A stretch of DNA of 64,000 nucleotides from a virus (IMGVR_UViG_3300032038_000071:1-64000), one strand, 5' to 3'. Positions 2,083-59,886 are shown, numbered from the stretch's first letter. The notes: generated from the letters alone by a model not told the origin. Numbers and translations are program-made.

Positions 2083-2121
2083 AAAAAAAGTGCTATGCTA
2101 TATTTTACTATAGCATAGCAC
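2083..2121 (-). terminator. rho-independent terminator of the 2140-2544 gene
   Basis: Perfect 13-bp stem (2090-2102 / 2109-2121), 6-nt loop, then 7 T on the minus strand (plus-strand A-run 2083-2089). Confidence 0.8.
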
Positions 2122-2139
2122 TCAGGACAACGGATTTGA

Positions 2140-2544
2140 TTATCCAATTGCCTCATTTAACAGCTTGGTGGCTGTTTGCCAGTCAACACGGGCGGCACAG
2201 TCTCCAAAAGCTCCATGACTGCCAAGTTCGCTTTTACCTGGGATGCAAATAACAACATCGTTTTTGTTAGCACGTGCCTTGAAAAATACTTTTCCGTCAC
2301 GCTTGAGGTAAACACGTTCCTTTTTAAGCTCCCAATCAATTGTAAGTTTGTGCAGGACTTCCGACTTGGAAGCTACGATGGCTCCTGCCCAATCGATTAT
2401 GAGTTGTACTGCTGTGGTTGTCTCTGCCGGAGCGTTTATATCAGTGTAAAGCTTATTCATATTAACAGCGTTTACAAGCTCCTCATGTGATATACTACGT
2501 GCTACAACATTTTCCAGATTAACTCTTTTTGCGTCTTTTTTCAT
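2140..2544 (-). CDS. hypothetical protein (134 aa), moron-like cargo
   Basis: ORF track. SD TAGGAGGAAACCATT before the ATG. Visibly higher GC than neighbours. Its own terminator lies downstream. Confidence 0.6.
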   Translation of the reverse strand: MKKDAKRVNLENVVARSISHEELVNAVNMNKLYTDINAPAETTTAVQLIIDWAGAIVASKSEVLHKLTIDWELKKERVYLKRDGKVFFKARANKNDVVICIPGKSELGSHGAFGDCAARVDWQTATKLLNEAIG

Positions 2545-2571
2545 AATGGTTTCCTCCTAGATTTGAAATGA

Positions 2572-2694
2572 TTATAAATTGTTTACTGTAATAGTGAAGG
2601 CAGTGTCCTTGAGTAATTCAAGATAATATGCCTTGGATACGTACCCTGCATAAATGATGTATTGGGTCATACGGTCTCTAATGGTGATGTCCAT
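2572..2694 (-). CDS. small ORF (40 aa, MDITIRDRMTQYIIYAG...)
   Basis: Below the ORF-track length cutoff and found by hand. Strong SD ATAGGAGGAAATCATAT before the ATG at 2694; stop TAA at 2574-2572. Confidence 0.4.
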   Translation of the reverse strand: MDITIRDRMTQYIIYAGYVSKAYYLELLKDTAFTITVNNL

Positions 2695-2929
2695 ATATGA
2701 TTTCCTCCTATGATAGAATTGCCTCCCGTGCGGTCGCTGGTTGTTTTAAGCTGTGCAACGTGTTCCCAAGGTTCTTGTCTCAGGCATGTCCACTTATTTC
2801 ATAAATCCGGATGCTATGCTATGCAAGTGTTCCCCGGCAAGTGTGGAGCAAGGAGCGTTCTCACGACAGCGGCAGCGGTCGTCAGGTAGCGCACGTGGAT
2901 GCGATTCAATTGTCAATGTTCATGCTCTA
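2695..2929 (-). promoter_or_regulatory. about 230-nt GC-rich untranslated leader (candidate structured or cis-regulatory RNA)
   Basis: No ORF longer than about 13 codons on the minus strand. Roughly 50 percent GC by eye in a genome of about one-third GC. Contains hairpin ACGAC-CGCTGCCGCTG-GTCGT, CCGG...CCGG pairing, and direct repeats GGGAACAC(G)TTGCA x2 and CACTTGC x2. Confidence 0.45.
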
Positions 2930-2958
2930 ATGGTACTACAGGATTAATACCGTGTCAA
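2930..2958 (-). promoter_or_regulatory. sigma-70-type promoter (TTGACA-N17-TACCAT)
   Basis: On the minus strand, -35 at 2958-2953 and -10 at 2935-2930. An A/T-rich UP-like tract lies upstream. Confidence 0.6.
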
Positions 2959-3025
2959 TATAAAATTTAAAAATATTTTTAGATTTTTTATGTTTACATA
3001 ATATATGAAAATATTGCACCATTTG

Positions 3026-3093
3026 CGTTTTAAGCGTGTTTTAATGTTAATATGTACTAAACTACTATAAAAGCATAAAAAGCGCTTAAAACG
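3026..3093. repeat. 11-bp inverted repeat CGTTTTAAGCG / CGCTTAAAACG, arms 57 nt apart
   Basis: Arms at 3026-3036 and 3083-3093. A paralogous inverted repeat with near-identical spacing lies at 6855-6921. Confidence 0.7.
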
Positions 3094-3482: not shown

Positions 3483-3536
3483 AAAAAATAAATGGCAGCG
3501 GGTGTCTGAATAATGTCTCGCTGCCTGCTTTTTATC
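3483..3536. terminator. bidirectional terminator downstream of the Terminase_2-like gene
   Basis: GGCAGCG (3494-3500) pairs with CGCTGCC (3519-3525). T-runs are present on both strands. Confidence 0.6.
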
Positions 3537-6779: not shown

Positions 6780-6808
6780 AGTATATTACAGGAAAAGTCA
6801 TACGTCAA
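6780..6808 (-). promoter_or_regulatory. promoter (TTGACG-N17-TATACT) with A/T-rich UP-like tract
   Basis: On the minus strand, -35 at 6808-6803 and -10 at 6785-6780. Confidence 0.6.
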
Positions 6809-6854
6809 TAAAAAATTGATAAATATTTTTAAATTATTATAATTCATTTTAACG

Positions 6855-9353: not shown

Positions 9354-9382
9354 ATATTACTACTGAAATTATCATATGTCAA
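9354..9382 (-). promoter_or_regulatory. promoter (TTGACA-N17-TAATAT)
   Basis: On the minus strand, -35 at 9382-9377 and -10 at 9359-9354. Followed by a ~100-nt leader with the long-range stem CTATCG...CGATAG. Confidence 0.6.
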
Positions 9383-9410
9383 TAAAAAAATTAAAAATAT
9401 TTTTATGCTT

Positions 9411-59774: not shown

Positions 59775-59886
59775 AATCTGTTTCTCCTTTACATTCTTTT
59801 ATATCCGTTTAGCTTGTAAATCCGCAGGTACGGTACTGCGTTTGAATGTGCATTTGTTTAAATGTCTTTATGCTCGACTATATATC

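Follow-up and report, generated by a model that had tools for sequence, protein, structure and literature searches.

A two-gene cassette of the phage analysed here, lying between terS and a block with tRNA-Gln and the endolysin gene, is supported by sequence comparison as an exchangeable accessory unit with its own promoter and terminator. Its long leader is marked as a functional element, since it evolves as slowly as the adjoining coding DNA and is the GC-richest stretch of the phage. Our preferred, tentative reading, to which we give somewhat less than an even chance, is that the leader acts in cis as an RNA closed by a long-range helix (P1), with a role in processing, stability or translation. 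The hot spots of virulent gut phages are where accessory cassettes tend to carry anti-defence and host-takeover genes, and the control of such cassettes is therefore of interest. If the closing helix is a processing or gating device, it would be one with an exchangeable core; if it is not, the cassette would be nothing out of the ordinary, an accessory unit whose leader is long and whose two genes are ORFans.

The window, that is the whole stretch of 64,000 nucleotides analysed, corresponds to positions 1-64000 of an IMG/VR virus record of 66,835 bp, which has terminal repeats and is rated complete. Its GC content is 35.6%, every long ORF is carried by the minus strand and an SD-like core precedes 48 of the 60 long ORFs. 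Likenesses of the portal and endolysin proteins were found in phages of Clostridia and other Firmicutes, at below 46% identity, and relatives of the cassette in animal gut metagenomes, bovine included; a member of the Clostridia from gut or rumen is the probable host. Three sources served for comparison: the homologous locus L005, with which the leader was compared at full length (two sequences in all); a related phage of 64.8 kb (G001, 94% complete), the terS of which is 71% identical to that of the window and the corresponding locus of which lies on L041; and four metagenome runs from four different studies (X1, X2, X6 and X10). No RNA run was among the sequencing runs listed as holding cassette sequence. 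Beyond these, blastn and tblastn of the cassette against GenBank phages and a protein profile search of genome contigs gave no match, and IMG/VR held no further copy of ORF134 or of three 20-21-mers from the leader. An 18-mer search of genome contigs for leader homologues returned 35 matches, mostly in GC-rich genomes, which were taken as chance because none reaches past about 29 nt. A further candidate homologue, L004, was discarded, as its resemblance came down to a local NKNDVVIC match within a 226-aa protein.

The features of the locus, in window coordinates, are the following.

4114-3629, minus strand: terS, followed by its own terminator and then by a 670-nt A/T-rich spacer before the cassette promoter
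3026-3093, minus strand: operator-like inverted repeat (CGTTTTAAGCG ... CGCTTAAAACG) upstream of the promoter
2959-2991, minus strand: A/T-rich upstream element (TAAAAATATTT...), common to the promoter family and also present in G001 and L005
2083-2958, minus strand: the cassette, an accessory transcription unit of promoter, leader, two genes and terminator
2930-2958, minus strand: sigma-70-type promoter TTGACA-N17-TACCAT, 10 of 12 consensus matches
2695-2929, minus strand: non-coding GC-rich leader, about 229 nt from the putative transcript start near 2923
2890-2907, minus strand: 5' strand of P1, a predicted long-range helix, at +17 to +34, pairing with 2716-2732
2860-2885, minus strand: predicted P2 hairpin, ACGAC/GUCGU plus GC/GC with a UGCC loop
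2789-2847, minus strand: predicted P3 domain, UCCAC/GUGGA around CCGGG/UCCGG, replaced in X10
2822-2834, minus strand: direct repeat copy 1, GGGAACACTTGCA
2754-2767, minus strand: direct repeat copy 2, GGGAACACGTTGCA, degenerate in L005
2743-2751, minus strand: GCTTAAAAC, third copy of the operator-arm motif, inside the leader
2716-2732, minus strand: 3' strand of P1, ending 6 nt before the ORF40 SD and inside a 31-nt block 100% identical in L005
2572-2694, minus strand: ORF40 (40 aa), SD AGGAGG at 2709-2704
2140-2544, minus strand: ORF134 (134 aa), SD AGGAGG at 2558-2553, an ORFan protein of predicted alpha+beta fold
2081-2123 (hairpin 2088-2123), minus strand: intrinsic terminator with a perfect 14-bp stem, a 6-nt loop and T7
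Downstream of the cassette: 60-nt repeat units, tRNA-Gln (1816-1744) and endolysin

The sequence-only reading had proposed this self-contained unit, and its promoter, TTGACA-N17-TACCAT at 2930-2958, was indeed present on the minus strand and 100% identical in L005 (29 of 29 bases), with identity remaining complete from the -35 box to about +25. Moreover, the window has two paralogues of it, at 6804-6831 and 9378-9405, which makes a family of three against an expectation of 0, and the TAAAAATATTT element and the -35 box are common to these three and to the equivalent promoter of G001. Because it is identical in L005 and belongs to a three-copy family, the promoter is not a chance match. The phage-specific family can be written as TAAAAATATTT, 10-14 nt, TTGAC(A/G)-N17-TAnnnT, with its members at 2954-2981, 6804-6831 and 9378-9405 of the window (all minus strand) and at 6440-6500 of L041. 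The idea that the cassette promoter is a late promoter like lambda PR', with an antitermination leader, was dropped since the same family includes two promoters ahead of early genes. At the other end of the unit, the terminator had been described as a perfect 13-bp hairpin; the perfect stem stands, followed by T7, but its length is 14 bp. The putative transcript start, 7 nt past the -10 box, falls on the AUG that opens a five-codon mini-ORF (MNIDN, stop; 2923-2906, minus strand), which is 100% conserved in L005 and has a TTGACA copy inside.

Comparison with G001 revealed the exchange of cargo. The two phages match through terS, and again from a point inside the cassette terminator into the region of tRNA and endolysin. 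What G001 has in place of the cassette genes, between the shared A/T-rich element with its -35 box and the shared terminator, is four unrelated small ORFs and a leader of another sequence, about 105 nt long; G001 as a whole has no homologue of ORF134. This exchange marks the site as a hot spot for cargo. Morons of temperate phages are independent promoter-gene-terminator units, following the concept of Hendrix and Juhala, and the cassette had been called moron-like. As far as build is concerned the comparison is apt: like such morons, the cassette has its own promoter and terminator, sits between conserved genes of the backbone, occurs in some relatives and not in others, with different cargo at the same backbone position in G001, and deviates in part in GC content. 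It is unlike them in that its promoter comes from the phage's own family and is not foreign, in that its GC-rich part is the leader and ORF134 only (99.9th and 97th percentile, with ORF40 ordinary at 36.6%), and in that the phage has no integrase and its own replisome. Across the complete 66.8-kb genome no match to the tyrosine or serine recombinase families (PF00589, PF00239) was found, and the replication set includes DNA polymerase, a sliding clamp, clamp loaders, SSB, a UvsX-like recombinase and a resolvase; for these two reasons the phage of about 66.8 kb looks virulent in its gene content. As the phage lacks an integrase, expression of the cassette from a prophage, as expected of a moron, appears unlikely from the sequence.

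The leader contains no conserved coding sequence. It had been proposed as an ORF-free stretch of about 230 nt, which agrees with the length of about 229 nt from the putative start; its short ORFs are not kept in L005, where indels of 1 nt and 3 nt break all frames on both strands, and the protein collection holds no gene call antisense to it. Windowed GC analysis bore out that both the leader (49.8%) and ORF134 (42.7%) are GC-richer than the phage. With a window mean of 35.6% (sd 4.1, 235-nt windows), the leader ranks at the 99.9th percentile; of all 235-nt windows in the 64 kb, the one with the highest GC falls in the leader region and is the only such window that is non-coding. Long GC-rich intergenic regions have been used in published searches for structured RNAs (PMC8723152; PMC6429828, the same line of work). 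Like leaders found by that approach, the leader of the cassette is long, GC-rich, conserved and placed upstream of genes in an A/T-rich genome; unlike them, it has so far yielded no Rfam match, no expression platform and no significant covariation (PMC6429828, PMC8723152).

Furthermore, the leader is 86.4% identical to that of L005 (204/236), in comparison with 64% and 46% at the third codon positions of ORF134 and ORF40, 68% and 60% at their four-fold sites, 71% in the spacer upstream of the promoter and 60-65% in the remaining non-coding pieces (binomial p = 5e-11 against a baseline of 0.68). It accompanies the genes in all four metagenome runs, where it aligns about as well as coding DNA (at least 97% in X1, about 93% in X6). 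In X10 the leader is retained up to 2874 and again from 2753 on, with 141 different letters in place of the intervening 120 nt. These sequence comparisons support a non-coding leader under purifying selection. Were the leader instead functionless, a GC-rich remnant of the source DNA of the cassette with its apparent conservation due to recent recombination, one would expect what is seen in some respects: the site is a recombination hot spot, identity is blockwise, from 100% over the promoter to 71% upstream, and the aligned leader parts in X6 and X10 are about as similar as coding DNA, not more. Nevertheless, we hold this explanation to be improbable, given a leader identity well above that of the synonymous sites of the adjoining genes on the same contig, the presence of the same leader with the genes in 4/4 runs from four different studies, and the P1 complementarity kept in both the window and L005.

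A fold of the leader is plausible as modelled from the two sequences. The claim that the leader is structured as a whole was not borne out, with a folding energy no better than that of dinucleotide shuffles (z +0.42). Its individual helices differ in this regard. The hairpin ACGAC...GTCGT recognised earlier is present at 2885-2860 as P2 and is clearly stable, with a predicted energy of -12.2 kcal/mol (z -4.2), and a C-to-U change in L005 leaves a G-U pair in it. P1 was predicted in separate folds of the window and L005, with pair probabilities of at least 0.84 and at least 0.71, respectively, and most at least 0.9. Over 18 nt it comprises 15 pairs in the window and 16 in L005, with two mismatches and a bulge, and the three substitutions that L005 has in the P1 strands all lie in or beside internal mismatches. 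The P1 duplex has an energy of -20.9 kcal/mol, which 0.23% of phage windows and 0.1% of shuffles attain. In addition, X10 keeps both blocks that hold the P1 strands while the segment they enclose is replaced. The stability of the P3 arm is not above that of shuffles; it contains one compensatory change, 2846/2790, from C-G to A-U in L005. Covariation among homologous leaders, which the sequence-only reading had made a test of its proposal, thus amounts to one compensatory pair and one G-U change; both fit the sense strand only, but the single pair has P = 0.22 in a comparison of two sequences, and the L005 substitutions scored on the window-only fold break 6 pairs against 8.3 expected (P = 0.20).

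The leader and its surroundings also hold signals at the DNA level. The direct repeats GGGAACAC(G)TTGCA, reported earlier as about 60 nt apart, are both there, as the only two copies in 64 kb (0.01 expected), but their spacing is 67 nt and the second is degenerate in L005. A resemblance of this second copy to CRISPR direct repeats was considered and dropped; the copy is not conserved in L005. All three copies of GCTTAAAAC in 64 kb lie less than 350 nt from the cassette promoter, and the one in the leader equals an arm of the inverted repeat upstream of the promoter. CTTAAAAC occurs 9 times in 64 kb versus 3.05 expected, with 6/9 copies near the three paralogous promoters. As a wider observation, motifs of the CTTAAAAC/GTTTTAAG type, some paired as inverted repeats and some single, are concentrated near all three promoters, at distances of up to about 200 nt. 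From the distribution of GCTTAAAAC, CTTAAAAC and GGGAACAC, part of the leader conservation may therefore reflect binding of a regulator to DNA.

Taken to its end, this would mean that the leader is conserved for DNA-level reasons, as regulator sites and promoter-proximal signals, and that the RNA fold is incidental. Candidate sites would be the GCTTAAAAC copy at 2743-2751, the two GGGAACAC repeats, which occur in the leader only, and the first 25 transcribed bases, which are invariant and lie in the stretch from -35 to about +25 unchanged in L005. The gathering of CTTAAAAC and GCTTAAAAC near promoters and a whole-leader fold not above chance are in keeping with it. The same features weigh against a cis-acting RNA, for a promoter-proximal DNA function could explain the conserved 5' block and the 3' block holds the operator-arm motif. 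On the other hand, the complementarity of the P1 strands is rarely equalled by chance, the G-U pairs and the compensatory change fit a sense-strand RNA, and a GC content of 50% in a spacer of an A/T-rich phage is not expected of operator DNA; moreover, the second direct repeat is degenerate in L005 and the CTTAAAAC motif was not found in G001. We therefore regard a purely DNA-level explanation as unlikely.

The leader had also been put forward as a riboswitch candidate. A search of 2690-2935 against Rfam 15 (4227 families) gave no match even at E up to 10; the sole Rfam matches in the window, tRNA-Gln (1816-1744) and GP20-a, lie outside the leader. The GP20-a RNA (RF02991, 67.1 bits) was located at 59780-59882 on the minus strand, upstream of the scaffold and capsid genes. 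No terminator/antiterminator pair, no hairpin with a U-run and no expression platform were found within the leader. The CTCCT segment supposed to pair with the first SD is present in the window, but as candidate anti-SD the CUCCU is lost in L005, and the ORF40 SD is unpaired in the minimum-energy folds of both sequences. Since there is no Rfam match and no U-run hairpin, the SD is unpaired, CUCCU is lost and the core is exchangeable in X10, a ligand-sensing riboswitch of a known class is not supported. A new ligand-sensing riboswitch controlling ORF40 and ORF134 would share with the leader its length, GC-richness and conservation, a closing helix and conserved unpaired stretches. We nevertheless consider it very improbable: besides the failed Rfam search at E up to 10, the lack of a terminator/antiterminator, an SD free in the predicted folds and the CUCCU lost in L005, X10 has another core between the P1 strands, the downstream genes hint at no metabolite, and the distribution is very narrow, with five close ORF134 relatives.

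In the cis-acting reading that we prefer, the cassette would be transcribed from its copy of the three paralogous sigma-70-type phage promoters, with a start near 2923. Leader bases +17 to +34 would then pair with the 17 bases ending 6 nt before the ribosome-binding site, and the resulting P1 would close a domain of about 155 nt that holds the stable P2 and the more variable P3 arm. The leader would most likely govern how the ORF40-ORF134 message is processed, how stable it is or how it is translated, and one possible route is cutting of the closing helix by a double-strand-specific RNase. Phage early mRNA leaders that are processed by RNase III or closed by a helix include the lambda N leader and the T7 early sites, and a leader helix for RNase III is double-stranded over about two turns, roughly 20 bp. 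The cassette resembles these leaders in having a long-range helix by the ribosome-binding site that encloses a folded, exchangeable segment. It is unlike leaders of the lambda N and T7 type in its mismatched helix of 15-16 pairs, a length below that of a classical RNase III site and a point against the preferred reading, in showing no sequence similarity to them, in its Gram-positive-like host and in being known from sequence alone.

The same helix-closed architecture, with its enclosed part exchanged in X10, could also serve a leader that is, or releases, a trans-acting small RNA, for example a decoy or regulator directed against the host and cut out at the closing helix, the two genes being merely co-transcribed. 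No cis effect on translation is evident, because the SD is unpaired in the folds, and this too would suit an RNA acting in trans. However, there is no terminator between the leader and ORF40, and no copies of the leader occur elsewhere in the phage or in IMG/VR, so that we judge a trans-acting RNA distinctly unlikely. The boldest form of a leader RNA would be a kind of phage leader not described before, in which a folded segment open to exchange is held by a closing helix that is conserved and lies next to the ribosome-binding site. That segment would either be released by processing as a small RNA or control the expression of an accessory cassette, possibly one with an anti-defence role, and the ORFan proteins would be its partners; as a whole, this is a conjecture that we would not expect to hold.

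Turning to the genes, the two ORFs of 40 and 134 aa with strong SDs were borne out, as AGGAGG lies 7-9 nt ahead of both ATGs and synonymous changes predominate in comparison with L005. In ORF40, codon positions 1, 2 and 3 are 95, 98 and 46% identical, with 19 synonymous versus 4 non-synonymous codon changes, and amino acid identity among the relatives is 93-98%. In ORF134 the corresponding values are 86, 91 and 64%, with 36 synonymous versus 27 non-synonymous changes. By these substitution patterns, both are real genes under purifying selection. Both are also ORFans: nothing significant was found for either in Pfam, PHROGs, NCBIfam or the PDB sequences, the ESM Atlas was uninformative, and PADLOC returned no finding on the cassette proteins. 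Among 5.8 billion clusters and 1.84 billion representatives, ORF134 has five close relatives and one at 40% identity (P0006); the multi-stretch matches also returned by the representative search were set aside as probable low-complexity matches because their targets are large repetitive proteins. The best viral match is an uncharacterised protein of Bacillus phage G (E 5e-4).

An AlphaFold model of ORF134 from six sequences (pLDDT 83) predicted a helix, a five-stranded antiparallel sheet and a C-terminal helix. In agreement with the earlier remark that the 134-aa protein has no recognisable motif, nothing in the PDB passed E 1e-3 in the fold comparison, with Foldseek values of E 0.13 or worse and VIA Z of at most 7.0, in the noise range (Z <8). 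The predicted topology is like that of the alpha+beta sandwich of Frataxin/CyaY-like and YjbR/DUF1801-like proteins (VIA Z 5-7); unlike a member of these groups, ORF134 scores within noise (Z <8) and has no sequence match to them. A likeness to AcrIIA11 was likewise set aside as within noise, with Z 5.5 that went down to 4.1 with the better model.

Several further observations concern repeated sequences at the locus. The leader segment 2809-2819, ATAGCATAGCA, is identical to the 3' arm of the cassette terminator and therefore complementary over 11 nt to its 5' arm (terminator positions 2091-2101 and 2110-2120); only 6 nt of this complementarity survive in L005. CCGCTGCC was tried as a DNA motif and dropped, its second copy in the window (3483-3536) being the stem of the terS terminator (GGCAGCG ... 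CGCTGCC, T-run). Between the cassette terminator and tRNA-Gln, at 1894-2013, units of about 60 nt with TTTCTATATTGTGAGGG and GATTTTTTAC were found, kept in kind in L005 (1090-1249) and in G001; they could be a second phage-specific promoter type, serving the tRNA and lysis block. At the G001 locus, the leader of the other cargo (L041 6501-6600) is also GC-rich and folds better than shuffles (z -2.2). G001 moreover has, in the interval from terS to the cassette promoter, a GC-rich stretch of about 450 nt (L041 5990-6440) that is absent from the window and contains neither a convincing ORF nor an Rfam match. It is crowded with CGCTGCC/GGCAGCG motifs in both orientations, with 10 in the locus against 0.33 expected.
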